DNA of 64,000 nucleotides from Thermoanaerobaculia bacterium (GTDB lineage Bacteria > Acidobacteriota > Thermoanaerobaculia > UBA5066 > Gp7-AA6): positions 3,076 to 67,075 of the forward strand of contig JBBRFL010000016.1 of the NCBI GenBank assembly GCA_038224325.1, read 5' to 3'. Of this stretch, positions 11,420-35,100 are shown piece by piece. A program made the position numbers and the translations under genes. Below the pieces are notes generated by a model. That model was given only the letters and a program-made list of their open reading frames with translations, made no database searches and was not told the DNA's origin. The first letter of the stretch is position 1. The number at the start of each line of letters is the position of its first letter.

Positions 11420-12127
11420 CTACTTCTCCTTTTCCTTCTCCTTCTTGCCGTCCTTGCCCTCTTCCGCGGCCTCGTCCTCGGATACCGCCTTGCCCTTCTT
11501 CAGCACCTCGGGCTCGGCCGTCTCGGCGGCGCCCTCGACCGCCTCGACGACGGGCTCCTCCTCGCGCGTCGGATGCGCGACGTGGAGGACCACCTTCTCG
11601 GGATTGTCGACGATGCGCACGCCCTCCATCGCGGGAAGCTCGGCGATGCGGATCGCATCCCCGATCGACAGCTCCGTCACGTCCACGGCGATGTGCGCCG
11701 GGATGTCCGCGGGAAGGCACTCGATCTCGATCTCGCGGGTGACGACGTCCAGGATCCCCCCGTCGGTCTTCACGCCCTTCGCGATCCCGACGACCTCGAC
11801 GGGCACACGGACCGTTACCCTGACGTCCATCAGGACGCGCACGAAGTCGATGTGGAGCGGCTTGCGGGAGACGGGGTCGCGCTGGAGCTCGCGGATCATC
11901 GCGTGACGGCTCTGGTCCGAGCCAGCCAGCTTGAGCAGGAAGATGGCGTTCTCGCCCGCGCCCTCGCGAAAAAGATCGGCGAGCGCCTTGCGGTCGAGCG
12001 AGATCGGGACGTTGGGCTTGCCGGCCCCGTAGACGACGGCCGGGATCCGTCCGCCCGCGCGGCTTCGCCGAGCCTCGTTCTTCCCGATCGTCGAGCGCTT
12101 CTCGACGGACAACTCGATGGTCTTCAT
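11420..12127 (-). CDS. rplY: 50S ribosomal protein L25/general stress protein Ctc
   Basis: MKTIELSVEKRSTIGKNEARRSRAGGRIPAVVYG... with a C-terminal K/E-rich tail. Confidence 0.85.
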   Translation of the reverse strand: MKTIELSVEKRSTIGKNEARRSRAGGRIPAVVYGAGKPNVPISLDRKALADLFREGAGENAIFLLKLAGSDQSRHAMIRELQRDPVSRKPLHIDFVRVLMDVRVTVRVPVEVVGIAKGVKTDGGILDVVTREIEIECLPADIPAHIAVDVTELSIGDAIRIAELPAMEGVRIVDNPEKVVLHVAHPTREEEPVVEAVEGAAETAEPEVLKKGKAVSEDEAAEEGKDGKKEKEKEK

Positions 12128-12166
12128 GGCCTTCCCCGCGCGGGGTTCCGCGCAAAGAGGCGGATT

Positions 12167-13126
12167 CTACACAAAAAGCGAGGAAACGGAAGCCCCATCG
12201 TGGATCCGCTGGATCGCCTCGCCCAGCAGAGCCGCCACGGAGAGGGCCCGGATCCGGGCGCAGCGGGCCATCGCGGCCTCCACGGGAATCGTGTTGGTGA
12301 CGAGCAGCCGCTCGAGCTTCGAGCCCTCGATGCGGTCCAGGGCGGGTCCTGAGAAGACGCCGTGCACGGCGGCCGCGAAGGTGCGCCGCGCCCCCTGCCC
12401 CCGCAGGGCCTCCTCGGCCTGGGTCAGGGTGCCGGCCGTGTCGATCATGTCGTCCAGAATCAGGGCGTCCTTCCCCTCGACCTCGCCGACGACGTTCAAG
12501 ATCTCGGTCTCGTTCTTCCCCGTGCGCCGCTTGTCGATGACCGCCAGCGAGGCGTCGAGGCGTTTGGCGATCGCCCGCGCGCGCGTCAACCCGCCCACGT
12601 CGGGCGAGACGATGACGAGGTCGTCGAGGTTGAGCTTCCGGATCGCGTCGAGGAGCACCGGGGCCGCGAACAGGTGATCGACCGGGATGTTGAAGAACCC
12701 CTGGATCTGGGCCGCGTGGAGATCCATCGTCAGGATCCGATCCGCGCCGGAGGCCGTCAGCAGGTCCGCCATGAGCTTGGCCGCGATCGGCACGCGGGGC
12801 TTGTCCTTCTTGTCCTGTCTCGCGTAGCCGAAGTACGGGAGGACAGCGGTGATCCGGGACGCCGACGACCGACGGAACGCGTCGAGCAGGATGAGCAACT
12901 CCATGACGTGGTCGTTGACGGGAGAGCACGTGGGCTGGACGACGAAGACGTCGGCGCCACGCACGTTCTCGTCGATCTGGCAGTAGTCCTCGCCGTCGGA
13001 GAAGTTGTAAAGGGTCAGCGCGCCGAGTGAGATGCCCAGATACGCGCAGATCTCCTGCGCGAGCGCCGGGTGCGCGCGGCCCGAGAAGATCTTGAGGTCA
13101 CCGTAGTTGAACGCGTGGCTCGTCAA
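12167..13126 (-). CDS. prs: Ribose-phosphate pyrophosphokinase (PRPP synthetase)
   Basis: DLHAAQIQGFF, VVSPDVGG and LILDDMIDTAGT motifs. Confidence 0.92.
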   Translation of the reverse strand: MTSHAFNYGDLKIFSGRAHPALAQEICAYLGISLGALTLYNFSDGEDYCQIDENVRGADVFVVQPTCSPVNDHVMELLILLDAFRRSSASRITAVLPYFGYARQDKKDKPRVPIAAKLMADLLTASGADRILTMDLHAAQIQGFFNIPVDHLFAAPVLLDAIRKLNLDDLVIVSPDVGGLTRARAIAKRLDASLAVIDKRRTGKNETEILNVVGEVEGKDALILDDMIDTAGTLTQAEEALRGQGARRTFAAAVHGVFSGPALDRIEGSKLERLLVTNTIPVEAAMARCARIRALSVAALLGEAIQRIHDGASVSSLFV

Positions 13127-13254
13127 GCGATCCGGATTCTAACCGCGAATCGGGGGCCCGAGGAGGCGGACGAAGAAATGGCTCAGAGGGAGGCGAGGCA
13201 GCCCTTCTCCCTCGCCACCGTCGGTCTCAGCGGGCGGGCTGCAGTCCCGACAAC

Positions 13255-13553
13255 ATGGTGACGAATCCAAACGGCGCCCTGCCCGTGATCACCCAGATCC
13301 AGGTTAACCCGACGCATTCCGCCAGCGTGCTGATCATCGCAGGGATGAACTTCGAGCAGACGGCGACGTTCGATCTTCGGCAGGGCGGCGCGGCGAAGGC
13401 TGCTGACGCAGAGGATCCTGGCGACCGGCACGCCTGCGACCGGGATTCAGTTCGAAGCGACGATCCCGGTGGGCACCGCCCCCGGGAGCGCCACGACGAA
13501 CGCGGGTACGGGCTGCGGGCGGGTCCTCGTCAAAGTGTTCTAGGGGCCCGACG
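13255..13553 (+). pseudogene. Possible frameshifted IPT/TIG (Ig-like) domain gene remnant next to the tRNA-Gln 3' end
   Basis: Frame 1 reads MVTNPNGALPVITQIQVNPTHSASVLIIAGMNFEQTATFDLRQGG. A +1 frame continues LLTQRILATGTPATGIQFEATIPVGTAPGSATTNAGTGCGRVLVKVF to a stop. Together they resemble the TIG consensus P.I..I.P..G...GGT.V.I.G.NF...V.FG.... Confidence 0.2.
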
Positions 13554-13575
13554 GGTGCGCCGCCGCACGGTTGGC

Positions 13576-13648
13576 TGGGGCGCTAGGACTCGAACCTAGA
13601 AATGCCGGCTCCAAAGGCCGGTGCCTTACCAATTTGGCGACGCCCCAA
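13576..13648 (-). tRNA. tRNA-Gln (anticodon UUG)
   Basis: The reverse complement folds as a cloverleaf: acceptor UGGGGCG/CGCCCCA, anticodon stem CCGGC/GCCGG with loop CUUUGGA, T-arm GGTTCGAGTCC. Near-identical to E. coli tRNA-Gln. CCA is not encoded. Confidence 0.85.
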
Positions 13649-13660
13649 GCTCCGGAGATT

Positions 13661-13978
13661 TTACCCCGCCGCTCGCGAGGTCTCCGCGCCGGCCTGGGCC
13701 GAGGCCACCGCCTCCCCGGGGTCGTTCACCCGGGCGCGCTCGTACTCCTCCAGGATCCGCCGTTCCATCAGCTCCCGGGTCTCGCGGTTGAGGGGATGGG
13801 CGACGTCCTTGAACTCCCCGTTCTTCTTGCGCTTCGAGGGCATGGAGATGAAAAGACCGTTGGGGCCCTGGATGACCTTCAGGTCCGAGACCAGGAAGCA
13901 CTCGTCGAGCACGATAGACACGTAGGCCTTCAGCTTCTCCTCCGAGACGGGAAACACCTTCACCTGCGTGATGTTCAT
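13661..13978 (-). CDS. spoVG: SpoVG family protein
   Basis: MNITQVKVFPVSEEKLKAYVSIVLDECFLVSDLKVIQGPNGLFISMPSKRKKNGEFKDVAHPLN; GGAGGAG SD. ATGA overlap with ispE. Confidence 0.85.
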   Translation of the reverse strand: MNITQVKVFPVSEEKLKAYVSIVLDECFLVSDLKVIQGPNGLFISMPSKRKKNGEFKDVAHPLNRETRELMERRILEEYERARVNDPGEAVASAQAGAETSRAAG

Positions 13979-14829
13979 GAGACTCCTCCCGGATCGATGC
14001 GGTGTTGGAATTCTCGGCGGCCGAGGGTGAGGCATCGGAAGATTCGCGCCTCGGGATGACGCGCCCCGATCGCCATGGAGGCCTCCGCGTTCACGCCGTG
14101 AAGGACGATCGCGGATCCGGATCCACTGATCGCGTAGTCGAGCGTGGCTCGTTCGACGGTTCGGAGGTAGGCATCCATCCTCGGTTCCACACCTAGCACG
14201 GCGGATGCCAAATCGTTCGGGCCCAGGTATCGGACCGAATCTTCCTCGATCGCGAGGCGCTCCGGGAGCCGACCGCGACCCGCAAACGCGCGGTAGACCG
14301 CAGCGGTGGAGATCGAGAAGGGCGGGACGAGAAGGACGAGCTCGACTGCCGGGCCGTCCTCCCGGGGTGTCACGACTTCGCCCCGTCCGCTGACGTCGGC
14401 ATCGCCGCCTGTCAGGAAGAAGGGGACGTCGCTTCCGAGCTCCGCCGCGAGCCCGGCAAGGGACGACTCGTCCTCGTCGAGCGACCAGAATCGCGCCAGG
14501 AGCCTCAGAGTCGCCGCTGCGTCGGCGCTGCCGCCCCCGAGCCCGGCTCCCGCCGGGACCCTCTTCTCGAGCCGCAACCGCACGTGGGGCGGCCTTCCCG
14601 CGTGCTTCGCGAGACGCCGCGCCGCGCGTACGACCAGGTTGTCCTCGCCCGCGGGAAGGCTCGGGTCGTCGCACGAGAGCTCCATAGCGTCCGCCGGCTC
14701 GACTGTCAGCCGGTCCGCGAGGTCGATGGAGGCCATCCGCGATCGGATCTCGTGATATCCGTCGGGCCGCAGCCCGCCCACGCGCAGCTCGCGGTTGATC
14801 TTCGCGGGAGCCAGGCAGGTCAGGCTCAT
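13975..14829 (-). CDS. ispE: 4-diphosphocytidyl-2-C-methyl-D-erythritol kinase
   Basis: APAKINRELRVGGLRPDGYHEI and GHMP-kinase motif PAGAGLGGGSADAAA. Start trimmed to MSLTCLAPAKIN. Confidence 0.88.
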   Translation of the reverse strand: MSLTCLAPAKINRELRVGGLRPDGYHEIRSRMASIDLADRLTVEPADAMELSCDDPSLPAGEDNLVVRAARRLAKHAGRPPHVRLRLEKRVPAGAGLGGGSADAAATLRLLARFWSLDEDESSLAGLAAELGSDVPFFLTGGDADVSGRGEVVTPREDGPAVELVLLVPPFSISTAAVYRAFAGRGRLPERLAIEEDSVRYLGPNDLASAVLGVEPRMDAYLRTVERATLDYAISGSGSAIVLHGVNAEASMAIGARHPEARIFRCLTLGRREFQHRIDPGGVS

Positions 14830-15497
14830 CGGCCGGGCGCCGGTTTCGCCGCGCCCGATTCCACCCCGAGGAGATCCAGCTTCAGGCTTCGGCCGGACCG
14901 GGCCTCCTTCAAGGCGATTTGTTGCGGCCACGTCTCGATCGCGCCCGAATACGACGCGGCCAGGTCGCCTCCGTTGGCGCGGATCCGGAGAGACCGGAGC
15001 CGCCGTGCCTTCACGTCGAGCACCGCCTCGACGGGATAGGGAGTCTCCCAGATCAGGAGGCATTCGCCCCCGTCGCACCCCCCTACGGCGCCGGGGGCTC
15101 CCGGCCAAACTGCCGCCAGTACGGAGCGCAGCGCGTCGGGGTCGACCACGAAGGCCCGCTGGTCCTGGCCCTTCACCCATCCCTCCGCGTAGTCCGCGAT
15201 GCGCGATCCGAAGGGCCCGGTGAGGGACGCGGAGAGGACGCGTTGCCCGTCGTAGCTGACCGCGAGGGTGCCGGAAACCGACGGCATGGCCCGCGAGCTC
15301 ATGTGGGCGTCGTAGAGCAGGCGCGAGGCGGGAAGGCGGGAGGCGCGTTCCTGCGCGGCGCCCCACGCGTCCAGCGCCTCTCGAACATCCTGCGGGCTCG
15401 CGGGCGGAAAGTAGCGAACGGCGCGAGGGCCTGCGCAGGAGGCGAGAATCAGGAGGAGCGGAAGGGCGGCGAGGGATCGGAGGAGACGGACGCTCAA
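14826..15497 (-). CDS. LolB-like outer-membrane lipoprotein, inferred from the lipobox and the conserved position upstream of ispE. TTG start.
   Basis: TTG-initiated (M)SVRLLRSLAALPLLLILASC with lipobox LASC. The TTG overlaps the upstream TPR gene's stop (TTGA). The lolB-ispE-prs synteny is known from E. coli. Confidence 0.4.
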   Translation of the reverse strand: MSVRLLRSLAALPLLLILASCAGPRAVRYFPPASPQDVREALDAWGAAQERASRLPASRLLYDAHMSSRAMPSVSGTLAVSYDGQRVLSASLTGPFGSRIADYAEGWVKGQDQRAFVVDPDALRSVLAAVWPGAPGAVGGCDGGECLLIWETPYPVEAVLDVKARRLRSLRIRANGGDLAASYSGAIETWPQQIALKEARSGRSLKLDLLGVESGAAKPAPGR

Positions 15498-17398
15498 CGC
15501 TGCGTGAGCGGGGAACCCGCGCGCTTGAGCTTCTCGCGAACGCGCTCGGGCTCCTCGCTCTTGAGCTCGAGCGCCTTCGCCCAGTGCCGGACCGCGGAGT
15601 CCATCTTGCCGAGCTTCGCGTCGAGGTCGCCCATGTGCTCCTCGATCGTCGGGTCCGTCGGCTCCCGCCGGTATGCCTCGCGAAGATTCGTCTCGGCGCT
15701 GTCGAGCCGTCCGAGGCGGAAGTACGCCCACCCCAGGGAGTCCCGGAAGGCCGCGTTGCGCGGTTCCCTCGCCACCGCCTTCTCCAGCAACTCGCGCGCG
15801 CGATCCAGCTGGACTCCCTTGTCCGCCCACATGTATCCGAGGTAGTTGGCGGTGGCGGCGTCGTTGGGTCGAATGGCGAGGATTTCCAGGAACACCTTCT
15901 CCGCCTCGGCCGCGGAACCGGCCCGCTCGAGGCTCGAGGCGAGACGGAAGAGCGCGTCGGTGTTCTCGGGGAAGCGGCGCGACGTCTCGCGGGCGATGCG
16001 GGCGGCGGCGGCGAAATTCTTGAGCCGGGCGTACGCGTCGGCCGCCGCGTTCATCGAGTCGGCGTCCGGGGCCGAACCGAGCTCGTCGAGCTTCGCCTCG
16101 GCCCCCTTCCTGTCGCCCGTGCGGAACTGAAACTCGGCCGCCGCGGCCGCCCACTCGGGATCCCGGGGCTCCACCGCGGACAGCGCCTTCGACCGTTCCC
16201 GCCCGTCCGCGAAGTCTTCGCCGTCGCGGTCCGCGGCGAGCAGGATGCGGGCCGCGCGGGGATTCACCTTGCCCTGTGGCTGGGCCGCGGGGGCGAGGAT
16301 CCGCCGGGCCTCGGCCCAGTTCTTCTGGAGATACGCGATGAAGCCGAGCTCGACCGTCGCGGACTGGCGGATGTCGGCTCGGTGCGGATCGTCCCCGGCT
16401 CTCTGGATCATGTCCTGGTACATGGTCCGCGCCTCGTCGAACCTCCGCTCGCGGGTCAGCTCGGAGGCGAGCGCCCGGCGCGAGGCCGAATCGTCCGGAT
16501 CCGCCTCGATCAGAGCGCGCAGCAGCTTCTCCCCCTGGGCGGTGTCCGAACGCTCGAAGAGAACCGTCGAGAGCAGCCGCTTGGCGGAGGGGTTCTCGGG
16601 ACGCTGCGCGATGAGATCCCGCGCGCGCTTCTCCGCGTCGACGAAGCGCCCGGCCCGCGCCAGGTCGAGGACGATGCGCTCCCCGATCGCGCCGTTGGAC
16701 GGGTCCCGCTGCGCGAGCTGCTCGAGAAGCGCGAGCGCCTCGTCCATCTTGTCCTGCTCCTCGTAGAGGTCCACGAGCGCCGCCGCGATCTCGCGGTCCG
16801 CCGGGTCGGCCTCGTGGAGCGAGCGATAGAGCCCCTCGGCTTCCTTCCATCGGCCGCTCCGCGATTTCGCTTCGGCCGTGAGCCGCTGGATCGCGGGCTG
16901 GCCCGCGAGCTCCGGCAGGTCGTCCATGACCGCCGCCGCCTCCGCGGAGCGATCGGCGACCAGAAGCGCCCGGGCCAGGCTCACCGCCGTGCCGACGTCC
17001 GATGGAGAGAGTCGCCGGGCGATCGTGAGCTGCTCAATCGCCGCCGGCAGCCGCGTCGGGTCCTTCTCCGCCGCCGCGAGCTCGAGCGAGCCGAGCAGGC
17101 GACGGGCCTCCGAGAGTTTGGGGTCCAGGGCGACCGCCTTGCGGGCCTCGGCCGTCGCCTCTTCGACGACGTTCAAGTCGCGCAGCAGCTGGGCGTACTC
17201 CAGGTGCACGACCGGGTCCGACGGAAGCTTGAGCAGGACCTTGCGGTAGAGACCCAGCGCCACCTGGAACTGCCCGTCGGCAACCGCCCCGCGGGCCGCG
17301 AGGAAGGCTTTCCGACTCTCCAGGAGATCGTCCGCGGAGGCCGCGAGGGGGTGGAGAATGACGGCCAGGGACAGGACGAGGACAGCTCTCAGCGTCAC
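15494..17398 (-). CDS. Secreted tetratricopeptide-repeat (TPR) protein
   Basis: Signal peptide (M)TLRAVLVLSLAVILHPLAASA followed by many TPR-like helical repeats. Start taken as GTG at 17398; an upstream ATG at 17506 is an alternative. Confidence 0.55.
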   Translation of the reverse strand: MTLRAVLVLSLAVILHPLAASADDLLESRKAFLAARGAVADGQFQVALGLYRKVLLKLPSDPVVHLEYAQLLRDLNVVEEATAEARKAVALDPKLSEARRLLGSLELAAAEKDPTRLPAAIEQLTIARRLSPSDVGTAVSLARALLVADRSAEAAAVMDDLPELAGQPAIQRLTAEAKSRSGRWKEAEGLYRSLHEADPADREIAAALVDLYEEQDKMDEALALLEQLAQRDPSNGAIGERIVLDLARAGRFVDAEKRARDLIAQRPENPSAKRLLSTVLFERSDTAQGEKLLRALIEADPDDSASRRALASELTRERRFDEARTMYQDMIQRAGDDPHRADIRQSATVELGFIAYLQKNWAEARRILAPAAQPQGKVNPRAARILLAADRDGEDFADGRERSKALSAVEPRDPEWAAAAAEFQFRTGDRKGAEAKLDELGSAPDADSMNAAADAYARLKNFAAAARIARETSRRFPENTDALFRLASSLERAGSAAEAEKVFLEILAIRPNDAATANYLGYMWADKGVQLDRARELLEKAVAREPRNAAFRDSLGWAYFRLGRLDSAETNLREAYRREPTDPTIEEHMGDLDAKLGKMDSAVRHWAKALELKSEEPERVREKLKRAGSPLTQR

Positions 17399-17527
17399 CG
17401 CCGCAATGTAGCACGGCCCCCGCGGGCTCCGGACCGCGGCGGGACCTCGCGTCGCGGGAGGCCCGGGAAAGGCCTGCGGCCTGGAGCCGCGCACGCGATC
17501 CGCCATTACGCGATAATCAAAGAGCAC
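17399..17527. promoter_or_regulatory. Divergent intergenic region with a GATAAT -10-like element 10 nt upstream of the MshEN-A ATG
   Basis: cgcGATAATcaaagagcacATG (GATAAT at 17512-17517). The spacing suggests a leaderless or very short-leader transcript. Confidence 0.25.
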
Positions 17528-18874
17528 ATGCCGCGACTCGGCGTCCTACTCGTCAAGGCCGGCGCACTGACCGAGGAGAGCGTGAATCGCGCGCTCGCCA
17601 TCCAGGGCTTTGCGGGCGGTCGCATCGGCACGCTCCTGATCGAGCGGGGCTCGGCGTCCGAGGAGGACGTCGGAAAGGCGCTGGCCGAGCAGCACGACTG
17701 CGAGTACGTTCCGTGGGCCACGCTCGGCGCCGTGCCGCCGGAGGTCACGGCGGCGCTGCCGGCGAAATTCGCGATCCGGCATTCCGCGATTCCCGTCGAG
17801 CTCCAGGAGGGATTCCTCCGGATCGTCCTGCGCGATCCCGCAAACCTCCGGATTCTCGACGAGCTCTTCTTCGTCACGGGTAAGAAAATCGTGCCCGCGA
17901 CCGCTCCCGAGGTCCGCATCTACCAGGCCCTCGAGAAGTATTACGGCGAGCGTCGGACCCCCCGTTTCGCGATCCTGGCGGAAAAGATCTCCCGCCCGAC
18001 GCTGACGTCCGTGATCAAGAAGCCTCTCCCCCCGCCGCCGGACTTCTCGGCGCCGGTAACGTACATGCCGGGAGACTCGGTGCCGCGCGCCGACGCGGAT
18101 TCGGACGACGCCTACGCCACGCCGACCTGGAACATTCCCGACGAGCCTCCCGTCGGCTGGGGGGGATTCGCCCCGCCCGTCGAGGAGGGCGCCGAGCCCG
18201 AGCTCGAGTCGATCCCGTGGGAGGAGATGCCGTCGCAGCCGCTGTGGCGCTCCTCCCCCGAAGAAGCCCGCCAGAGGCCGTCGCCCGTTCGACCCGCGGG
18301 GGCGCCGAGGTCGCGGGAGAACGCGCCGCGGCGGACCGCGCCGTCCACGGAGGCGGCCCCGCCTCCCCCGCCGCAGCGGGCGGGGATCCCCTCCCCCGCG
18401 GACTTCGCCGCGATCCTCGCCGCCTCCGACCGGGACGCAATCTTCGAGGCAGCGCTTAGGGCGCTCGCGCGCCGGTTCCGCAAGAGCGCCGTATTCGCGG
18501 TGCGTCCGGACGGGGTCGCGGGCTGGGCCGGCCTCGGCGATGGCGTCCGGGACGGCGAGCTGAAGGCCCTCGCGATCCCCTGGTCCGAGCCATCCCTCTT
18601 TCTGAACGTCCGGATGAGCCGCTCCTTCTATCTCGGGCCCATGCCGACCCTGCCCCGACACAAGGACCTGGCCGCGGCGTTGGGAGGCTGGCCGTCGGAA
18701 TGCCTGCTCCAGCCCGTCCTGATGCGCGATCGGACCGTGGCCTTCTTCTACGTGGAGGGGTCCTCCGCGCATGGGGCGACCCCGACCGATCTGACGTACG
18801 TCCGGGAGCTGGCCGGGGCAGCCGCCGCAGCGCTGGCCGCGTCCATCCGCTTGAAGAAGAAGCAGGTTATATAA
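17528..18874 (+). CDS. MshEN/T2SS-E N-terminal (GspE_N) domain protein A. It has tandem 24-aa c-di-GMP-binding motifs, a Pro-rich disordered linker and an uncharacterised C-terminal domain.
   Basis: N-terminus RLGVLLVKAGALTEESVNRALAIQ-GFAGG-RIGTLLIERGSASEEDVGKALAEQ fits RLGxxLVxxGxLxxxxLxxxLxxQ twice with a 5-aa spacer. The remainder of the T2SSE_N fold follows (LPAKFAIRHSAIPVELQEGFLRIVLRDPANLRILDELFFVTGKKIV...IYQALEKYYG). The C-terminal roughly 150 aa is paralogous to protein B. Confidence 0.65.
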   Translation: MPRLGVLLVKAGALTEESVNRALAIQGFAGGRIGTLLIERGSASEEDVGKALAEQHDCEYVPWATLGAVPPEVTAALPAKFAIRHSAIPVELQEGFLRIVLRDPANLRILDELFFVTGKKIVPATAPEVRIYQALEKYYGERRTPRFAILAEKISRPTLTSVIKKPLPPPPDFSAPVTYMPGDSVPRADADSDDAYATPTWNIPDEPPVGWGGFAPPVEEGAEPELESIPWEEMPSQPLWRSSPEEARQRPSPVRPAGAPRSRENAPRRTAPSTEAAPPPPPQRAGIPSPADFAAILAASDRDAIFEAALRALARRFRKSAVFAVRPDGVAGWAGLGDGVRDGELKALAIPWSEPSLFLNVRMSRSFYLGPMPTLPRHKDLAAALGGWPSECLLQPVLMRDRTVAFFYVEGSSAHGATPTDLTYVRELAGAAAAALAASIRLKKKQVI

Positions 18875-18894
18875 TCCATGACCCCGGAGGATTC

Positions 18895-19164
18895 GTGATC
18901 AAAGCCGACATCGTGGACCGAGTGGTTGACCTGGCGCAGATCCCGCGAGCCAAGGCCGCGACGGCCGTGGAAACGGTCATCGAGGCCATGCGCTCCGCGC
19001 TTGGCGCGGGAGATCGCATCGAGCTACGCGGATTCGGAGTCTTCCAGGTGAAGCGCCGCAAGCGGGGAATCGGACGCAATCCCAAGACGGGCGTCGAGGT
19101 CTCAATCCCACCCGGGAACACGATTCGATTCAAGCCGGGCAAGGATCTGCGCGACCTGACCTAG
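18895..19164 (+). CDS. IHF/HU family nucleoid-associated DNA-binding protein
   Basis: GTG start with GGAGG SD. (M)IKADIVDRVV...RIELRGFGVFQVKRRKRGIGRNPKTGVEVSIPPGNTIRFKPGKDLRD matches the IHF/HU arm signature. Confidence 0.8.
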   Translation: MIKADIVDRVVDLAQIPRAKAATAVETVIEAMRSALGAGDRIELRGFGVFQVKRRKRGIGRNPKTGVEVSIPPGNTIRFKPGKDLRDLT

Positions 19165-19182
19165 CAAGGAGTTTCCATTCCC

Positions 19183-20478
19183 ATGCCGCGGATCGGCGAA
19201 CTGCTCGTCGCGGAAGGCGTCCTTTCGGAGGTCGCCGTGCAGAGCGCGCTCGGATTCCAACGGCACACCGGGGAACCGTTCCGTCTCGGGACGATCCTGC
19301 TCGACCGCGATCTCCTGGGCGAGGAGAGCCTGATGAAGGCGCTGTCCTCGCTTCACCGCTGCGACTACGTGGCCTGGTCGGAGATTCTCAAGGCCACCCC
19401 GCGCATCGTTCGGCAGCTCCCCGAGCGGACGGCGACGCGCCTTTCGGCGATCCCCTACGCGCTCGAGGGCCGGGGCCTCCGCGTGGCGTTCAAGAATCCG
19501 TCGAACCTCGCGGCGGTGGACGAAGTATCGTCCGTCACGAATCGCCCCGTGATCCCCGCCGTGATCTCCGAGGTCCGCCTCGTGCAGGCGCTCAACCTGT
19601 TCTACGGCCGACCCGTGCCGATCGAGTTTCGCAACGTGCTCCTCAAGCTCGAGCGCAACGAGGAGCGCCGCCTCTACAAGACTCGCGGGACCCTGCGCGC
19701 GCCGCTGTCGCCCCCGCCGCCGCGCGAGCGCGCGTGGGAAACATCCTGGGCTATCCCGATCGAGAACGCTTCGCCCGAGCCCGAGCCCGAGCCCGCGCCC
19801 CGGTCCTACGCGGCTCCGTTCGCCTCCGCGGAGCTGACGCAGGGCGAGCTCGCGGACTCAGGGGACTTCCTGCCGGAATATGCGCCGCCCCGGGCGCTCA
19901 GTCCGGAAGAGATGGTCGCTCGGATGTGGAGGGACGAGACGCCTCCCGATCCCGACGACAGCGCGGTGCGCGCGATGTGGGAGCCGCCCCGGGAGCCCAG
20001 GCCGCAGGCGGCGGAGCGCTCGTCCGCGCGCAACCAGGTCGCCGAGGCCACTCTCGACGCGCTCGCGCAGCGGTTTCCCCGGGTGCTCCTGCTCGTCTCC
20101 GCGCAGGATTCCGTCCAGGGGTGGAGCGGGCGCGGCGCGGGCATCACCCTGGAATCAATCACCGGCCTTCGGATCCCGTGGGGCGAGCCGTCCATCTTCG
20201 CCTTCGTCAAGCTCTCCGGCAGCGCCCACAGGGGATCCCTGAACCGGATTCTCGTACCGCCGGCTCTGGCTCAGATCGTCGGGGCCAAGGCCGTCGCGGC
20301 CTGCGCCGTGTTCCCGGTCCGCATCAAGGATCGCCTGATCGCGTTTCTCTACGCGGACCGCGGAGGCGCGCCCCTTTCGGAAGACGACTACCGGAGCCTC
20401 GAGATCGCGTCGAGCTCCCTTGGCAGCTCGCTCGCCCGACTCCTTCTCGAAATGCGTCGGAACGTTTCGCCGGCCTGA
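19183..20478 (+). CDS. MshEN/T2SS-E N-terminal domain protein B, a paralog of A. Its second motif is degenerate.
   Basis: RIGELLVAEGVLSEVAVQSALGFQ, then RLGTILLDRDLLGEESLMKALSSL in which the Gly and Gln positions are lost. AAGGAG SD. The C-terminal domain aligns with protein A (IPWGEPSIF / IPWSEPSLF; LIAFLYAD / VAFFYVEG). Confidence 0.65.
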   Translation: MPRIGELLVAEGVLSEVAVQSALGFQRHTGEPFRLGTILLDRDLLGEESLMKALSSLHRCDYVAWSEILKATPRIVRQLPERTATRLSAIPYALEGRGLRVAFKNPSNLAAVDEVSSVTNRPVIPAVISEVRLVQALNLFYGRPVPIEFRNVLLKLERNEERRLYKTRGTLRAPLSPPPPRERAWETSWAIPIENASPEPEPEPAPRSYAAPFASAELTQGELADSGDFLPEYAPPRALSPEEMVARMWRDETPPDPDDSAVRAMWEPPREPRPQAAERSSARNQVAEATLDALAQRFPRVLLLVSAQDSVQGWSGRGAGITLESITGLRIPWGEPSIFAFVKLSGSAHRGSLNRILVPPALAQIVGAKAVAACAVFPVRIKDRLIAFLYADRGGAPLSEDDYRSLEIASSSLGSSLARLLLEMRRNVSPA

Positions 20479-21397
20479 TCCCCTGAACGGATCGCCGCCC
20501 TCCGATCCCTTCGGGGAGCCACCGCCTCGTCCGCGCGGCTGGCGCCGCGTCGTCGAGCATCCGCTCTTCCACCTCGCTCTCCTCGCGGCGACGTTCGTGA
20601 CGACGACGCTGGCGGGCGGACTCTTCACCGATCGTGGGGGTTGGCTCGTGAAGGGCTCGTTCTCCGACGGGTACGCGTTTTCCGTTCCGCTCCTTCTCAT
20701 CCTCGGCGTGCACGAGCTCGGCCACTACGCCATGTGCCGGCGCTACGGCCTGGCGGCCACCCTTCCCTACTTTCTACCGTCCCCGCCTCTTCTCGTTCTC
20801 GCCGGCACCTTCGGCGCCGTGATTCGGATCAAGGAGCCCATTCGGACGAAACGCCAGCTCCTAGACGTCGGCGCCGCGGGTCCGCTCGCCGGGTTCTTCA
20901 CCGCGCTTCCCTTTCTTCTGTACGGAACCGCGCACCCGCGCCCGAGCACGACGGCGCTCACTCCGGGCACCTGGCTCTTCGGCTACCCGCTCATCGTCCG
21001 CTGGGCGCAGCAATGGATGCACGTGGGCCCCTACACGAGCGCGACGGTTCACGAGCACCCCACGTTTATGGCGGCGTGGTTTGGACTTCTCGTGACCTGC
21101 CTGAACCTCCTGCCCATCGGCCAGTTGGATGGGGGCCACGTGCTGCGAGCGGCCGTCGGGAAGCTTCAGCCGCGCGTGTCGGCCGTGGTGCTGGGCCTCT
21201 GCGTCATCGCCGGCGTCGCCGGCTCCCCCGTCTGGACGGTCCTGCCGCTCCTCGTGGCCGTAATCCTCGGGGTGACCCATCCGCCCGTCGACGACGACGC
21301 GGCCCCGCTCGACTTCGGCCGCACGCTCGTCGCCCTGCTCTGCGTCGCGGTCTTCCTGGTCTGCTTCACGCTGTCGCCGATCCAAACGCCGCCGTAG
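20420..21397 (+). CDS. Site-2 protease family (peptidase M50) integral membrane metalloprotease
   Basis: HELGHYAMCRRYG (HExxH) and LDGGH motifs with multiple TM helices. The start is uncertain: TTG at 20420 overlaps protein B by 58 nt, and other candidates are non-canonical. Confidence 0.6.
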   Translation: MAARSPDSFSKCVGTFRRPDPLNGSPPSDPFGEPPPRPRGWRRVVEHPLFHLALLAATFVTTTLAGGLFTDRGGWLVKGSFSDGYAFSVPLLLILGVHELGHYAMCRRYGLAATLPYFLPSPPLLVLAGTFGAVIRIKEPIRTKRQLLDVGAAGPLAGFFTALPFLLYGTAHPRPSTTALTPGTWLFGYPLIVRWAQQWMHVGPYTSATVHEHPTFMAAWFGLLVTCLNLLPIGQLDGGHVLRAAVGKLQPRVSAVVLGLCVIAGVAGSPVWTVLPLLVAVILGVTHPPVDDDAAPLDFGRTLVALLCVAVFLVCFTLSPIQTPP

Positions 21398-21407
21398 AGG
21401 CGCCTCC

Positions 21408-21854
21408 TCAGCGCGCCGGTAGCTCCAGGAGAAACGTCGCGGGCCCCTCGTTGACGAGGGAGACATCCATCGTTGTTCCGAAGACGCCCGTTTCGACGCG
21501 TGCGCCGAGGCCTCGGAGCGCGGTGACGAAGCCGTCGTAGAGGGGCCGAGCCTCTTCGCCCGGCAGCGCGCGATCGAATCCCGGCCGGCGGCCGCGGGAC
21601 AGGTCCGCGGCCAGCGTGAACTGGGAGACCGCCAGGACCGCGCCGTCGACATCCGCGAGCGAGAGATTCATCTTGCCGGCCGCGTCCTCGAAAATCCGCA
21701 TTCCCGCGACCTTGCGCGCGGCTTCCTGCGCCGCGGGAAGCGCGTCGCCCCTCTCGGCTCCGAAGAACACGAGCAGGCCGCGGCCGACCGCCCCGACGAT
21801 CTCCCCCGCCACGCGCACCTCCGCGCTCCGGACCCGCTGGACGACGAGCCTCAC
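21408..21854 (-). CDS. dtd: D-aminoacyl-tRNA deacylase
   Basis: (M)RLVVQRVRSAEVRVAGEIVGAVGRGLLVFFGAE...SQFTLAAD...NEGPATF. GTG start overlaps the murJ stop (GTGA). Confidence 0.85.
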   Translation of the reverse strand: MRLVVQRVRSAEVRVAGEIVGAVGRGLLVFFGAERGDALPAAQEAARKVAGMRIFEDAAGKMNLSLADVDGAVLAVSQFTLAADLSRGRRPGFDRALPGEEARPLYDGFVTALRGLGARVETGVFGTTMDVSLVNEGPATFLLELPAR

Positions 21855-23428
21855 GCGCGGCGCCTCCGGGCGATGCGGCGCAGCTCGGCGGGCTCCGGCG
21901 CCCCGAGGAGGTGGGCGGCCACTCCGTAGAACGCCGCCGCGGCTCCGATCATCACCGCCAGGATGCCGGCGCCTCGCCAGCCCGCGATGTCTCCGGGGGG
22001 AACGAGCCGGAACGCGCCCGCCAGGAGCAGGCCCATCGCCGCTGAGGCGGCTCCGATCCGAATCAGCGACGCCGCCACGGCCCTGCCGCGCATGGGCCCG
22101 TGCCGCCGCCGGAACGCGGCGAGGAGGATCGCCACGTCGACGGCGGCCGCGGCGGAGGCGGCGAGGCCTATACCCGGAAGGCCCAGCGAGGGCGTCAGGA
22201 TCCCGCAGAGCAGGAGAAAGACGGCCGCGTCGGCCAGGGCGGCGAGGACCGGAAGCGTGGTGCTCTGGAGCGCGTAGAACGCCGGCACGAGGACGCGGAC
22301 ACCCGCGAAGAAGAACAGACCGACCGCCAGCGCCGCCAGCGCCCCGGCCGTCGCCGCGGTGTCGGACTCGCCGAACCGTCCGCCCTGGAAGAGGACGCGC
22401 ACGATGGGTACCTGGAGGACCACGAGCCCGACGCTCGCGGGGACCGTGACGAACGCGATCAGCCGCAGCGCGAACGCCAGGTTGTCCTTGAAGGGCTCGC
22501 GATCCGCGGCGAGGGCCTGCCGCGACAGCAGCGGCAGGATCGCCGTCGCGACCGAGACCGCGAAGCCGCCGAGCACGAGCTCCTTCAGTCGGTTCGCGTA
22601 GTAGAGGTGGGACACGCTCGCATTCCCGAGGCCCGCGGCGAACCGCGTCGAGACCACGGTGTTGACGGTGTTGATCCCGTAGGCGAAGAGCCTCGGAGCC
22701 ATCAGCAGCAGCACGGAGCGGACGGCGGGGTCTCCCCAGCCGAGGGCGGGCCGGCCGACGGCGCGCAGCCGCCGCAGCTGCGGCACCTGGATCGCGATTT
22801 GGAGGATCCCGCCCGCGAGGACCCCTCCCGCCAGCCCGTACGTGGGCTCCGCCAGGCGGGGCGACACGAAGAGGGCCGCGAAGATCAGGGCTACGTTCAG
22901 GAAGATCGGCGCCGCGGCCGAGATCGCGAACCGGTGATGGGCGTTCAGGATTGCCTGGCACAGCGCGGAGAGAGACACGAGGAGGATGTACGGAAAGATC
23001 CACCGGTTCAGAAGGACCGTCAGCTCGAACTTCCCCGGCGTCTGATGGAACTGCCCCGCGAGGAGCCCCACGAGCCACGGCGAGAGGAGGATCCCGAGGA
23101 CGGTGATGCCGGTCAGCAGCAGCGCGAAGGTCCCCGCGACCCGGGCGAGAAAGGCCCTCGCCTCCTCCTCGGTGCGCCCGGCGGACACCGAGGCGTAAAC
23201 CGGGATGACCGCGGAGGACATGGCCCCTTCTCCAATGATCTCTCGCAGCATGTTGGGGATGCGAAACGCCACGAAGAAGGCGTCGGTGCGCATCCCCGCG
23301 CCGAGGGTGGACGCGATGACCTTGTCCCGTACGTAGCCCGTGACCCGGGACAGGAGAGTCAGAGGGGTGATCGTCGAGGCGGATCGGACCAGTCGCCCGC
23401 GGGCCTCGTCGATCTCTTGCTGGGACAT
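21851..23428 (-). CDS. murJ: Lipid II flippase MurJ (MviN)
   Basis: 525 aa polytopic protein. N-terminus TLLSRVTGYVRDKVIASTLGAGMRTDAFFVAFRIPNMLR is typical of MurJ. Confidence 0.88.
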   Translation of the reverse strand: MSQQEIDEARGRLVRSASTITPLTLLSRVTGYVRDKVIASTLGAGMRTDAFFVAFRIPNMLREIIGEGAMSSAVIPVYASVSAGRTEEEARAFLARVAGTFALLLTGITVLGILLSPWLVGLLAGQFHQTPGKFELTVLLNRWIFPYILLVSLSALCQAILNAHHRFAISAAAPIFLNVALIFAALFVSPRLAEPTYGLAGGVLAGGILQIAIQVPQLRRLRAVGRPALGWGDPAVRSVLLLMAPRLFAYGINTVNTVVSTRFAAGLGNASVSHLYYANRLKELVLGGFAVSVATAILPLLSRQALAADREPFKDNLAFALRLIAFVTVPASVGLVVLQVPIVRVLFQGGRFGESDTAATAGALAALAVGLFFFAGVRVLVPAFYALQSTTLPVLAALADAAVFLLLCGILTPSLGLPGIGLAASAAAAVDVAILLAAFRRRHGPMRGRAVAASLIRIGAASAAMGLLLAGAFRLVPPGDIAGWRGAGILAVMIGAAAAFYGVAAHLLGAPEPAELRRIARRRRA

Positions 23429-30656: not shown

Positions 30657-32153
30657 TCAGGCCCTCGGCCTCTTCCTCTTTGCCGCCGTTCGATTCGGGA
30701 CCGGCGTCGGAGCCGGAGGCGGCGAGGACCAGTCCGTCGCGATCTCGGGTCCCGCGGCCGCGATCCAGTGGGTCCGGTAGCGGCAGCAGGAGGCCGGCAG
30801 CGCGCCCCGCACGGCGATGCGGGCCGCAGCGATGGACTCCCACGGCGCCACCAGGGTCTCGAAGAGACGCACGCGGGTCGCACGTCCGGGCGAGACCGGC
30901 CGCCCGACCGCGTCGTACACCTCGTACCGATCGAAGCCTCCGAGGGAGACGTCCGCCGGACGCGCGGGCGTCAGGTCGATCTCGACCCATCCCGAGACGC
31001 GGGAGACGATCGAAGCGTGCGAGGAGCGGTTCACCGCCTCGACCGTCACGGCCCTCCGGCCCTGCGGCTGCACGGTCACGGCGAGAGCCGGCGAGAGCCC
31101 GCGCCCGAGAAGCACGTCCTCGAACGCGGCGATCGGAAAGAGGCGGTCCGCGTCCGACGCCCCCTCGAAGAGCATCACCCTGCCGAGCGCGTAGCGTTTT
31201 CCCGCCAGCACCGACCCCAGCTCGAAGAGCAGCTCGGTCTGGGAAGGAAGACGGAAGGTGATCCGATCTCCCTGATCGAGCGACAGGCCGTCGAGCCTCA
31301 CGGGGTCGCGGGCCAAAAGATGAAACGCGGAGACCGTGGCGTCGTTCTGGGAGAGGTCGTTGCCGAGATCGATGAGCGCGCTTCCGGATAGCGGGTCCAA
31401 AAACTTCTCGGGCACCGCCGCGGGCGCCTCCCCGTCCGCCGCGGACCGCACCCCGTGGCCGGCCGTGCCGAAGGCGGCCCACCACGGCCGGCGAAGCGAA
31501 TCCACGGTCGCGCCTTCCACCCGCTCTCCGTCGCGAAAGACGAACGCGACGATCGCGTCCGTCGCCTCGAGCAGCGGCGCGAGCCTCTTCCGGTCCGCGT
31601 CCGAGGCCGGCGGTGTCTGGATCCCGATCGACACGAACGTGCCCGCCGGCAGCGCGCCCCGGAGCGCGCGGACGAACGCCGCGTAGCGAGCGGCTCCGGC
31701 CGGAGAGAACGGGACGTCGAGGTGCACACCCCGCACGCGCCCGTATGGCCCGGAGGGGTCGAGGGATGGGTGGAGGGCCGTCCCGACGGCGCGCGCGATC
31801 GCGGCGGGATCAGATCCGACGTCGGTGCGGAAAGCGTTGGAGAGCTCGGGGCCCGCGCGCAGAACGAGGGCCACGGGAACGCGATCGAGGGGGCGCGGCG
31901 GGCGCGGATCCCCCCGCACCGCCCAGCGCCCGCTCTCCATCACGATCTCGCCGGCCGGAAGGAAGAGCGCCGCCGCCCCCATGTGCTGGAGCGAATCCTC
32001 CAGCCCCGCCTGACCTGCCGAGGCCGGATCGGACAGCCAGATCGCGTCTCCCCGGGGGGCGAGCCCGCCCGACGCGGATCCGGGAGCCGGAGCCCTCCGG
32101 CAACCCGAGGCGACGGCCGCGGCGATCAGCAGCCCGCCGAGCCGGCGGATCAT
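30657..32153 (-). CDS. Hypothetical lipoprotein of about 498 aa with unknown function
   Basis: [18 protein letters not shown] signal/lipobox. ATGA overlap with the upstream histidine-kinase stop. The 5' part of the track ORF was rejected as an R/P-rich artefact. Confidence 0.5.
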
Positions 32154-35100
32154 GCCGGCTCCCCGGCGGAGGAGACGGGCAGCTCGAAGTCCACGCGAAA
32201 GCCCCGCGGCGACCGATTCCGGGCGCCGATGGTGCCGCCGTGCTCCTCCACGATCTTCTTCGCGATGGCGAGGCCGAGTCCCGTTCCGCCGCTCTTGGCC
32301 GAGAAGTACGGATCGAAGAGCCGCGGCAGGATCGACGCGGCGACCCCGGGGCCGTCGTCCTCCACGCTCACGGCGATGCGGCCGTCCCGCCGTTGCGCAG
32401 CGGCTCGGATCTCTCCGCCCCGGCCGCGCAGGGCCTCGACGGAGTTTCCGATCAGATTGGATAGGACTCGGGCGAGGAGGCGCGGGTCCCCGTCGGCGCG
32501 GAGGTCCGCTCCCGCGTCCACCGCCCACACGATCCCGGGCGCCCCCGCGTACGCCCCAACGGACTCGCGAAGCAGCTTGCCGATGTCGGTGGACCGCATC
32601 TCGGGGCGCGGCAGCCGCGCGTAGTCCGAGAACTCCGCCGCCGCCCGGCGCAACTCGTCCGTTTGGTGCAGCACGTTCCGCACACACTCCTCGAGCACGC
32701 GATCGAATTCCGGAGACTGACGCCTCCAGACCTCTCGGAGATGTTCGACCGAAAGGCGGATTGGAGTCAACGGATTCTTGATCTCGTGCGCGATGATCCG
32801 GGCCATCTCCGCCCAGGCCGCCAGGCGGTTGGAACGGACGACGTCCGACACGTCCTCGATCACCGCCATGCGCGCGCCCGAGCCGCCGAGGGGAAGCGGC
32901 ACCGTCACGACCCGCCAGCGTTCTCCGGGCCTCGGCTCGAGGTCCTCGGAGACGGAGAGTTCACCGTAGCGCTCGAGGAGCTCGCGCACCGGCTTCATCG
33001 CCTCGCCCGGAAACACCTCCTCGAGGGTCGCTCCGTCGGACCGGCCCCCGCCGAGCGCCGCGGCGGCCGGATTGGCCAGGAGGACCCGCCGGTCCTCCCC
33101 GTACGCGACGACCCCGGCCGTCAACTGCGAGAGCAGCGTCGCGAGGCGCTCCTTCTCCTGCGAGAGCGCGTTGGTCTGTTCCTTGAGACTGCGGGACATG
33201 AACAGGAATGCGCGCACCAATTCCCGGAGCTCCTCGTCCGGAGGCTCGGCCAGTTGCGGCGTGAAGTCTCCGCGCGCCACGGCGCGCGTTCCTTCGACGA
33301 GGTCCGCGACCGGCCGGGCGACTCGGACCGCGAGCCGTCCGGCGACGGCCGCGGAGATCAGGAACACGAGCAGGGCGAACGCCGAGAACGCGGCCGTCAG
33401 TTGCGCGGCCTCGGCCTCCGCCACCCGCTGCTGGGGCAGGAGCAGCAGCGTCAGGAGCACGGGGCTGCGGACTCCCGGCACGCCGGGAACCGACGACAGG
33501 GCGGTCGTCATCTTCTCGAACGGGCTCCCCTCCAGGATCCGCGTGTCCGTGCGCTGGCGTGCTCCTCCGAGGCCGATGGCGGAGTAGGCGTCTCCGGACA
33601 TTCGCTCGGGCAGAAGTCCGGCGGCGTACAGATCGCGGCGGGAGGTGGCGATGAGGCGGGCCTCCGGCGAGAAGACCGAAAGGTCGTATCCGACGGCGTT
33701 GGAGAGCCAGGAGAGGAGCGAGTCGTCGAGGAGATTGAGCCGGCCCTGCGCGGCGGCCGAGGGAAGGTAGTCATCGAGAACCCGTCGGGCCGTCTCCAGG
33801 CCCGTCCGCGCATGGTAGAGCGTGTCTTGCGCGGTGCGGGACGCGATCGAGGACCGCAGGAACGCCGTGACCGCGACCAGCGGGATCATCACGGAGAGAA
33901 CGAACAACGCGATCAGCCGCCCGCGAAAGGTCCTCGTGCCCCGCGGCAGGGCGCCGCGAAGCTTGCTCCGGGTCGTGACGAAGCGCCAGGCCAGGATGAT
34001 TCCGCCCGCCACGTAGAGGGCGGCCGCGGGTGGCAGCAGGAGCGCCGCGGTCAGGAGGCGCTGCAGGAAATCGGGCCCCGGGATCGCGACGAGCTGGAAT
34101 CCGTCCGGCAGTGGCCTCAGCTCGCCCCGCAGCTCCTCGGCCCGGTAACGAAGCCGCACGCGCATGGGCCGGCCCGCCTCCCGCACCCTCGCGAGAACCT
34201 CCGGCGAGAAGTCCGGTCCTTCCTCTCGCTTGCTGCCATCCGGACCGTAGGACGCGAGGATGGGGCGCGGCGGCGAAGGGGTCGCCGGTGCCGCGCCGAC
34301 CAGCCGCCGGTACACCTCGAGCCGGGGCGGCAGCGGGTCCCAGCCGGGCCAGTCGGCGACGGAGATCACCGCGCGGCCCCACGGGGCGCCGCCGTCGCGC
34401 AGGACAGCCGCGCGCTTCACCACCGCGACCTCGTGCCGCTCGATCCGGATCCCGCCGCTTTCGGAGCCGGGCGCGTCCTCGGTGGCGGGGATCAGGGAGA
34501 ACCGGCTGCGGAGGAGACCCGTCGGATCGAACACCTCGTAGGCGATCAGAGCGGGCGACGGCGCGGACTCCTGGCCCTCGTGCCACAACCGGTACGCGAG
34601 GTCCGAGAGATCGAGCGAGGCGATGGGAGCCGGAAGCTCGCGCGCGAGGTCGAACGCCGCGACGCCTTCGACGGCGCGCCGCACCGAGACGACCGCGCCC
34701 GCGGAGATGCTCGAGGGCTCGGGCAGGCGGATGGCCGCGGCCGAACGAAACGCGACGGCCGCCCGCTCGTGCTCGTGCCAGGGCGAGGCGATCAAGACGA
34801 ACAGCATCATCGCGGCCCCCAGCAGTCGAAAGGAACCCGGGGCGGCGCCCGCGCCCGCGGTCGCGATCGATCGCCGGCACAGCTCGTAGGCGAGGACCGT
34901 CGCGAGCCCGATCGCCGCGGGGAAGGCCGCGGTCGCGGAGACCCAGCGCAGGCCCAGCACTATGGCTGCCGCGCTCGCGATCAGGGCGGATCCGGTCCAA
35001 CCACGCCCGGTTGGAGCGGGCGCGGCCGCCGCGCCGAGGGCCAGGGCCGAGGCCGCGAGTGCGGTCAGCCCGAGCAGGGCCAGGAAGGACGAGCTTACGA

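Follow-up and report, generated by a model that had tools for sequence, protein, structure and literature searches.

Does a receptor for the second messenger cyclic di-GMP (c-di-GMP) act together with the nucleoid protein and the intramembrane protease encoded beside it, or do these genes share no more than a place on the chromosome? The question is raised by four head-to-tail genes, separated by short gaps, on the + strand of contig JBBRFL010000016.1 from a bacterium of the class Thermoanaerobaculia (Acidobacteriota). They occupy positions 17528-21397 of the stretch of 64,000 nucleotides analysed here (the window; G+C about 70%) and encode protein A, a protein of the HU/IHF family (below, HU), protein B and an M50 protease (Table 1). 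An earlier reading of the same DNA, made from the sequence alone (the sequence-only reading), had taken them for a possible c-di-GMP-controlled module. The explanation we prefer, with a probability of about 0.6, is that A is a soluble receptor for c-di-GMP whose output is its GAF domain, that B is a specialised paralogue of A, that the genes are transcribed from two promoters, and that the adjacency of A and HU is due to ancestry.

MshEN is one of the two main predictable c-di-GMP receptor domains, and almost all functional knowledge of it concerns fusions to pilus and secretion ATPases. The Thermoanaerobaculia are a soil-abundant, barely cultured class of Acidobacteriota.

Domain composition of protein A

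The motif sought was RLGxxL(L/V)xxG(L/I/F)(L/V)xxxxLxxxLxxQ in tandem, with a joiner of about 5 residues (Wang et al. 2016). In protein A, repeat 1 (RLGVLLVKAGALTEESVNRALAIQ) and repeat 2 (RIGTLLIERGSASEEDVGKALAEQ) are joined by the 5-residue spacer GFAGG, and Arg1, Gly3, Leu6, Leu21 and Gln24 are present in both 24-mers. Against NF053729 (c-di-GMP_motif), the NCBIfam model of the 53-residue c-di-GMP-binding motif, A scored 46.4 bits at residues 3-55 (nucleotides (nt) 17534-17692), exceeding the cut-off of 38 bits, and Pfam MshEN (PF05157) matched residues 69-143, the MshEN_C subdomain, at E = 7.8e-15. The sequence-only reading of A as an MshEN-domain protein with a canonical tandem c-di-GMP motif and a 5-residue spacer is thus upheld. 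In the AlphaFold2 model of A the MshEN_C subdomain is confident, and Foldseek matched the N-terminal part to the N-domains of PilF GSPII and MshE. The Foldseek matches of A and B include 5htl, 8pdk and 9g1w (probability 1.0).

The C-terminal domain had been described as common to A and B and without an obvious name. It is indeed common to both, but it can be named, since profile searches, AlphaFold2 and Foldseek all identify it as a GAF domain. Pfam GAF_2 matched residues 300-436 of A with 30.7 bits (cut-off 28.6), the GAF fold was predicted at residues 290-447 with a predicted local distance difference test (pLDDT) above 90, and Foldseek returned GAF domains with TM-scores of 0.70-0.78 (5w10, 3oov). 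W333, S356 and G370 (A numbering) are invariant throughout the family, and no ligand-specific motif (cyclic nucleotide, haem, bilin etc.) was recognised in the domain. No transmembrane segment was found in A. Nor was a T2SSE ATPase domain found in A or B: the score against TIGR02538 was 34 bits against a cut-off of 675.65, the match was confined to the N-terminal ~145 residues, and there was no T2SSE Pfam match.

The proteins most similar to A (60-96% identity) are annotated as hypothetical and come from Thermoanaerobaculia and Acidobacteriota metagenome-assembled genomes (MAGs). An A-type profile search for taxon names returned few names, mostly Thermoanaerobaculia again, and the clusters of 10 distant representatives carried none. 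When 1.84 billion cluster representatives were searched exhaustively with HMMER, at least 303 clusters (50% identity) matched A at E < 1e-30. Because many of these consist of proteins of 370-500 amino acids (aa) that match both ends of A with 28-40% identity, the MshEN-linker-GAF proteins form a sizeable family, one member of which was already labelled "T2SS protein E N-terminal domain/GAF domain" (T2SS, type II secretion system) by the automatic annotation of the Joint Genome Institute (JGI). The architecture table of Wang et al. 2016 lists no MshEN with a C-terminal GAF, and its sole GAF entry is GAF-MshEN-T2SSE (PMC5013675). The literature searches yielded no study of MshEN-GAF proteins, of MshEN combined with HU, or of c-di-GMP in Thermoanaerobaculia, and no description of a system made up of an MshEN protein, a nucleoid protein and an intramembrane protease, in agreement with what the sequence-only reading had stated. 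A large, unstudied family therefore couples MshEN to GAF and represents an uncharacterised variant of the MshEN receptors.

Conservation of the c-di-GMP motif

From the related loci described below, 219 MshEN-GAF proteins were extracted, 153 with a 5-residue spacer (A-type) and 66 with a 7-residue spacer (B-type). Among the 67 distinct A-type N-termini of the clade to which the window belongs (the window clade), Gly3, Leu6, Leu21 and Gln24 were invariant in both repeats and Arg1 was invariant in repeat 2. The divergent A-type group (58 distinct) had Gln24 in 100% of the first and 88% of the second repeats, and Arg1 in 100% of the second. Even at 31-44% overall identity, A-type proteins never deviate at Arg1 of motif 2, at Gly3 or Leu6 of either motif, or at Gln24 of motif 1. 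At E ≤ 1e-9 the c-di-GMP motif model detected 40 of the 42 close orthologues of A and 11 of the 12 distant A-type proteins.

These figures bear on another reading of the two domains, in which MshEN serves here as a protein-interaction module, as the XpsE N-domain does with XpsL and the Xanthomonas PilB N-domain with PilZ, and the GAF domain is the true sensor of a cyclic nucleotide or another small ligand. In its favour, the Foldseek matches also include the non-binding XpsE N-domain and the PilB(N)-PilZ complex, a GAF domain that binds cyclic AMP (5w10) is among the closest GAF structures, and the second half-site of B is degenerate. The contact residues are lost in XpsE (PMC5013675), however, whereas A-type proteins have kept the c-di-GMP-contacting Arg1, Gly3, Leu6 and Gln24 of both repeats through very deep divergence and score above the curated cut-off of the binding-motif model. 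We regard this reading as unlikely.

Protein B, a paralogue with one altered half-site

Protein B had been described as an MshEN protein with one good and one degenerate copy of the motif, and this description proved accurate. Pfam MshEN matched B at E = 5.6e-12. Repeat 1 (RIGELLVAEGVLSEVAVQSALGFQ) is intact; repeat 2 (RLGTILLDRDLLGEESLMKALSSL), which follows a 7-residue spacer (RHTGEPF), has Asp in place of Gly10 and Leu in place of Gln24. The score of B against NF053729, 37.1 bits, narrowly missed the cut-off passed by A.

By plain BLASTP only the N-terminal 179 residues of A and B could be aligned (37% identity), and the Pfam GAF match of B was weak (E = 0.067). Profile-profile alignment of the two families with hhalign covered 385 columns and both domains (100%, E = 8.8e-47). 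Since this alignment spans both domains, the C-terminal domain of B is a GAF domain as well, and A and B, which the sequence-only reading had called paralogous, are full-length paralogues. A structure model of B, built with AlphaFold2 from an alignment of B with A-family proteins, had pLDDT values above 90 in both domains. Its N-terminal part matched best the V. cholerae MshE with c-di-GMP (5htl, TM-score 0.74) and its C-terminal part matched the GAF domains 3eea (TM-score 0.76) and 3o5y (TM-score 0.77). The GAF fold, which the sequence-only reading had raised as one of two possible folds next to PAS, is therefore predicted for both proteins (TM-scores 0.70-0.78). No transmembrane segment was found in B. 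A hydropathy peak at residues 356-379 was considered as one and rejected, as it lies in the GAF core of the confident model.

In the 60 distinct B-type proteins repeat 1 is intact. In repeat 2, position 10 is occupied by Asp (53), Glu (5), Ala (1) or Gln (1), and position 24 by Ile, Leu, His or Phe in 58 or more of them; the canonical Gly10 and Gln24 do not occur. The c-di-GMP motif model detected 10 of 29 B orthologues at the threshold used for A. Because the changes in repeat 2 are constant across the 60 proteins, the asymmetry of B is a fixed character and not decay. The possibility that B is a decaying pseudo-receptor was rejected: both domains are well conserved among B orthologues, under purifying selection, and the altered positions are fixed rather than variable. 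The 7-residue spacer was likewise rejected as disabling by itself, since Geobacter PilB also has a 7-residue spacer and the length alone is no argument.

A receptor/decoy or heterodimer arrangement of A and B is plausible, because the asymmetry of B is strictly conserved. B would be an old, single-clade paralogue, inserted between the HU and M50 genes, that kept half-site 1 and had half-site 2 permanently altered, which would give it altered affinity or stoichiometry; the homologous GAF domains may allow it to pair with A. The pair, with a canonical half-site in one protein and a permanently altered one in the other, constitutes a natural experiment on the contributions of the half-sites to binding.

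The disordered, Pro-rich linkers of both proteins contain conserved short islands, KKPLPPPPDFS, VPDxPPVGWGG and ESIPWEE in A (window 17960-18391) and SYAAPFxSAE, DFLPDFxPP and MW in B (window 19690-20020). The islands, which are not the same in the two paralogues, have the appearance of short linear interaction motifs.

Table 1. Positions of the genes, domains and DNA elements of the locus (window coordinates unless given as residues)
Feature	Position	Strand	Description
Gene A	17528..18874	+	448 aa, soluble, MshEN-linker-GAF
Disordered Pro-rich linker of A	residues ~145-288	+	between MshEN and GAF
GAF domain of A	residues ~290-447, nt 18395-18868	+	by HMM, AlphaFold2 and Foldseek
HU/IHF-family gene	18895..19164	+	89 aa, GTG start, GGAGGA Shine-Dalgarno at 18886-18891
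Gene B	19183..20478	+	431 aa, MshEN-linker-GAF paralogue, AAGGAG Shine-Dalgarno upstream
GAF domain of B	residues ~280-428	+	by AlphaFold2 model, Foldseek and hhalign with the A family
M50 gene	20420..21397	+	polytopic site-2-type metalloprotease, start uncertain (TTG 20420 or CTG 20483)
TACGCGATAATC	17507..17518	+	-10-like element, 3' edge 9 nt before the ATG of A
Constrained 3' end of A	18845..18876	+	candidate HU promoter; TATAAT 18870-18875 overlaps the stop of A

Gene order and distribution

When one genome of each GTDB species was searched with the closer A-type alignment, 80 loci were returned, with A at 42-77% identity; all belong to MAGs labelled Thermoanaerobaculia or Acidobacteriota. 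A divergent A-type alignment, used on metagenomes, added 80 loci, and look-ups of HU homologues added four with the same arrangement. Gene orders were read from tblastn maps.

The HU gene lay directly downstream of the MshEN-GAF gene in 135 of the 141 loci with enough sequence (median gap 37 nt), and the six exceptions were split genes or truncated contigs. A divergent gene for a tetratricopeptide repeat (TPR) protein was found upstream in 130 of 130 loci. On the 3' side of HU, examined in 99 loci, B and then M50 followed in 65, M50 directly in 31, and Dtd directly, without M50, in 3. B was confined to the window clade. One locus (L053; locus numbers are ours) had no B. In the broader clade the A-type protein was 31-44% identical to A and HU was 69-72% identical. 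A rearranged locus (L090) had M50 inverted beyond SSB and DnaB upstream, and MshEN-GAF and HU were still paired; in three others (L068, L069, L074) about 2.8 kb was inserted between B and M50. An insertion between M50 and Dtd was seen in L031, the insertions in these four loci spanning ~1.5-2.8 kb. Of the order MshEN-IHF-MshEN-M50, which had been put forward as possibly conserved, the adjacency of MshEN-GAF and HU holds, whereas B belongs to one clade and M50 is sometimes missing, inverted or displaced.

The conserved core is accordingly the MshEN-GAF gene and HU. It lies in a conserved block of ~15 kb with L25, Prs, SpoVG, IspE, a lipoprotein-like gene and the TPR gene on one side of A and Dtd, SSB and, in the window clade only, MurJ on the other. 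This is a class-wide housekeeping block, and because it also holds unrelated housekeeping genes, conserved order alone says little about function.

MshEN-GAF paralogues elsewhere (L085, L086, L172, L173) had neither HU nor M50 as a neighbour. Contigs with MshEN-GAF genes also encode a cNMP-binding (cyclic nucleoside monophosphate) and PilZ protein (L083, 12314-13108), a PilZ protein (L086, 354-1646) and a REC-GGDEF protein (L085, 12743-13717). Since GGDEF and PilZ genes share contigs with the MshEN-GAF homologues, the presence of c-di-GMP signalling in this group is suggested.

The HU/IHF-family gene

The middle gene lies exactly between A and B, as had been noted, with 20 nt between the stop of A and its start, 18 nt between its stop and the start of B, and good Shine-Dalgarno sequences (GGAGGA and AAGGAG) for itself and for B. 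Its product matched Pfam Bac_DNA_binding (PF00216) at E = 1e-25. None of the equivalog cut-offs was reached (IHF-beta 83.2 against 115, IHF-alpha 75.4 against 111, HU-beta 61.4 against 157), and PDB chains of IHF-beta (67.5 bits) and HU (66.3 bits) matched about equally. By these scores the protein is a member of the HU/IHF superfamily that is not assignable to a subfamily.

Across the 80 genomes its identity was 92-100%, compared with 42-77% for A, ~83-96% for Prs and ~69-86% for L25, which indicates that the constraint on this protein is unusually strong. One MshEN-GAF orthologue thus has a fixed chromosomal place beside an exceptionally conserved HU throughout the class. A second HU gene, 74-76% identical to that of the window, adjoins mreBCD-pbp2-rodA and has no MshEN gene nearby (L088, 6001-6270; L089, 6001-6348). 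The product of this mre-adjacent gene shares the signature FQVK.RK.GIG...IPPGNTIRF with the HU of the window, but not with the A-adjacent HU of the broader clade.

Candidate promoters

The promoter proposals made here are based on DNA conservation across genomes. The element TACGCGATAATC was invariant in 13 aligned orthologous upstream regions, in which the rest of the spacer between TPR and A was unconserved. GATAAT occurs at equal offset upstream of A within the window clade, and the distant clade has TATAAT-like boxes further upstream. From this element A is probably transcribed with little or no leader.

The 3' end of gene A (codons S I R L K K K Q V I stop) is likewise a DNA block that is invariant in 13 genomes. 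The fraction of the commonest codon was 0.95 in the last 8 codons, compared with a gene mean of 0.68, and was the maximum of any 8-codon window. Rare AT-ending codons (CGA, TTG, AAA, GTT, ATA, TAA) are fixed at this end of the gene in 33 orthologues, in a genome of 70% G+C, and a perfect TATAAT box spans the stop codon and precedes the start of HU by 20 nt. The equivalent spacer before HU in the broad clade contains TTGACA-N17/18-TAGACT, a promoter of textbook form. Given this DNA-level constraint, the TATAAT at the 3' end of A and the TTGACA/TAGACT pair of the broad clade, HU appears to have a promoter of its own, which in the window clade is partly embedded in the coding 3' end of A.

A simple scan for sigma-70 promoters and terminators found no terminator-like site in 17200-21700. 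Because the gaps are short and no such site intervenes, HU and B are likely co-transcribed, perhaps with M50 on the same transcript. A single transcript for all four genes had been envisaged; A and HU together are unlikely, given the candidate promoter of HU, while a shared HU-B(-M50) transcript is likely. Two tRNAs excepted, Rfam detected no riboswitch or other RNA in the window.

The M50 protease

The fourth gene product scored 78.6 bits against Pfam Peptidase_M50 (PF02163; cut-off 27.2) and has several transmembrane-like segments. Its motifs are HELGH at 20711-20725 (residue 98) and NLLPIGQLDGGH at 21104-21139 (residue 229), with residues counted from TTG 20420. This TTG is the only upstream in-frame classical start and would give an overlap of 59 nt with B, and it has no Shine-Dalgarno sequence; the other candidate, CTG 20483, lies 5 nt past the B stop. 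The claim that an M50 protease follows B immediately, possibly overlapping it, therefore holds for identity and position, and the overlap is ambiguous between the two starts.

With the site-2 proteases that have no PDZ or CBS domain (MjS2P type, with SpoIVFB and RseP distant) the protein has in common HExxH, NxxPxxxLDG and a polytopic core. Matches to MjS2P and SpoIVFB were distant, the RseP equivalog scored 20 bits against a cut-off of 147.55, and no PDZ or CBS domain was found in the protein. The cluster has no gene for an anti-sigma factor or other transmembrane substrate; nor was an anti-sigma, transmembrane-regulator or substrate gene found in the conserved block.

Functional module or shared ancestry

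The data on gene order, promoters and protease can now be set against the proposal that the four genes form a functional module, in which the MshEN-GAF proteins bind c-di-GMP and act on the HU-family protein (on DNA binding or compaction) and/or on regulated proteolysis coupled to M50, as one pathway from c-di-GMP to the nucleoid. A and HU are neighbours in essentially all of the ~140 loci, the rearranged L090 included, M50 stands directly after HU or B in ~96 of the 99 loci with enough sequence, and the 18-nt gap makes co-transcription of B with HU probable. CdbA of Myxococcus xanthus, a nucleoid-associated protein on which c-di-GMP acts, sets a precedent (PMC7156744). However, the same block also holds Dtd, SSB, TPR, IspE, SpoVG, Prs and L25, for which no link to such a pathway is plausible, so that synteny is weak evidence. 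HU apparently has its own promoter, other MshEN-GAF paralogues lack HU or M50 neighbours, and a 74-76% identical HU gene stands beside the mre operon with no MshEN gene. Moreover, A and B offer no transmembrane segment for intramembrane cleavage, and M50 is missing or displaced in several loci. In view of the housekeeping neighbours, the separate HU promoter and the HU-free paralogues, the case for a module comes down to synteny, and we think it improbable as a whole. A direct functional link of the receptor to HU or to M50 is possible.

In a more specific form of the proposal, the HU-adjacent MshEN-GAF protein, with B where present, would be a c-di-GMP-dependent partner of HU through which c-di-GMP levels reshape the nucleoid or global transcription, and M50 would control the turnover or localisation of a component. 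We would call this quite improbable. If the link to HU were true, it would be a new mechanism tying c-di-GMP to chromosome organisation through a separate receptor protein, undescribed so far.

Under the explanation we prefer, A would be a cytoplasmic receptor whose MshEN domain, with both canonical half-sites, binds c-di-GMP. The signal would pass along the long disordered linker with its conserved short motifs to the C-terminal GAF domain, which would serve as output through dimerisation, partner binding or a second ligand. A would be transcribed from its own -10-like element and HU from the promoter at or within the 3' end of A; B and probably M50 would be carried on the HU transcript, as the spacing and the conserved DNA motifs suggest. 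The strict A-HU adjacency would result from vertical inheritance of the class-wide housekeeping block, reinforced by the HU promoter; the physical interlocking of this promoter with the end of A would keep the two genes from being separated easily. If A does bind c-di-GMP, it offers a handle on second-messenger signalling in the phylum and on GAF output downstream of MshEN.

Several observations weigh against this explanation. Among MshEN-like domains, good-looking motifs can fail to bind c-di-GMP and degenerate ones can bind it (PMC5013675); perfect conservation of the motif is not always required for binding (Wang et al., PMC5013675). Residues 1-40 in the AlphaFold2 model of A are of low confidence, and no c-di-GMP-metabolising gene was present among the ~25 open reading frames (ORFs) of the window that were scanned. 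In the window clade the candidate HU promoter has a poor -35 region, and no promoter was found by the simple sigma-70 scan of 17200-21700. The class-wide extent of the arrangement was judged from taxon names for genome-derived loci and from similarity alone for metagenome loci.

Comparison with known systems

The nearest relatives of known structure, MshE of Vibrio cholerae (5HTL) and GSPII-B of Thermus PilF (8PDK), have in common with A the tandem 24-residue motif and the two-subdomain fold made up of the four-helix bundle MshEN_N and MshEN_C (T2SSE_N1), at 26-31% identity and a Foldseek probability of 1.0. In MshE and PilF the MshEN domain is followed by the T2SSE ATPase, whereas in A and B it is followed by a disordered linker of ~140 residues and a GAF domain; B also differs from them in a repeat 2 without Gly10 and Gln24.

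Closer in organisation are the non-ATPase MshEN proteins of Wang et al. 2016 (FrgA, which is MshEN-UNK-HEAT, PA3740, MshEN-REC and NfrB), candidate c-di-GMP effectors that likewise combine MshEN with a non-ATPase output, although none of them has MshEN followed by a C-terminal GAF. Motility is affected by FrgA and PA3740 (Wang et al. 2016, PMC5013675). In a further reading, the receptor serves the cell envelope or motility and stands beside HU by ancestral accident. The usual roles of MshEN are in pili, secretion and polysaccharide synthesis (type IV pilus and T2SS ATPases, NfrB-type glycosyltransferases), the M. xanthus FrgA is a non-ATPase MshEN protein that affects motility, and genes for MurJ, PBP1A, a LolB-like lipoprotein, M50 and TPR are nearby. 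The conserved block, however, contains no pilus, secretion or glycosyltransferase gene, MurJ is not part of the block in the broad clade, and the protein has no enzymatic or membrane domain. We give this reading very little credence.

That c-di-GMP could be linked to the organisation of the nucleoid has a conceptual precedent in CdbA and CdbB, c-di-GMP-binding nucleoid-associated proteins of Myxococcus xanthus (PMC7156744). In CdbA a single ribbon-helix-helix protein is itself the binder of c-di-GMP, in contrast to the locus studied here, in which an ordinary HU/IHF-fold protein stands next to a separate putative sensor.

Other genes in the window

Downstream of the M50 gene, ARAGORN predicted a tRNA-Arg of 100 nt at 22094-22193 on the - strand, within the coding sequence of murJ. 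Since Rfam gave no match there, the prediction is probably a false positive. Further along, an ORF of 410 aa at 31392-32624 (+) has a coding-like G+C content at third codon positions (GC3) and zero Pfam matches at E ≤ 1e-4.

On the other side of A, a minus-strand housekeeping cluster at 11420-17527, transcribed divergently from A, comprises L25, Prs, tRNA-Gln (13572-13647), SpoVG, IspE, a lipobox-bearing ORF (14826-15530, - strand) without a Pfam match and the TPR protein of 677 aa. We take this cluster to resemble the proteobacterial TPR-lolB-ispE-prs-L25-pth cluster.

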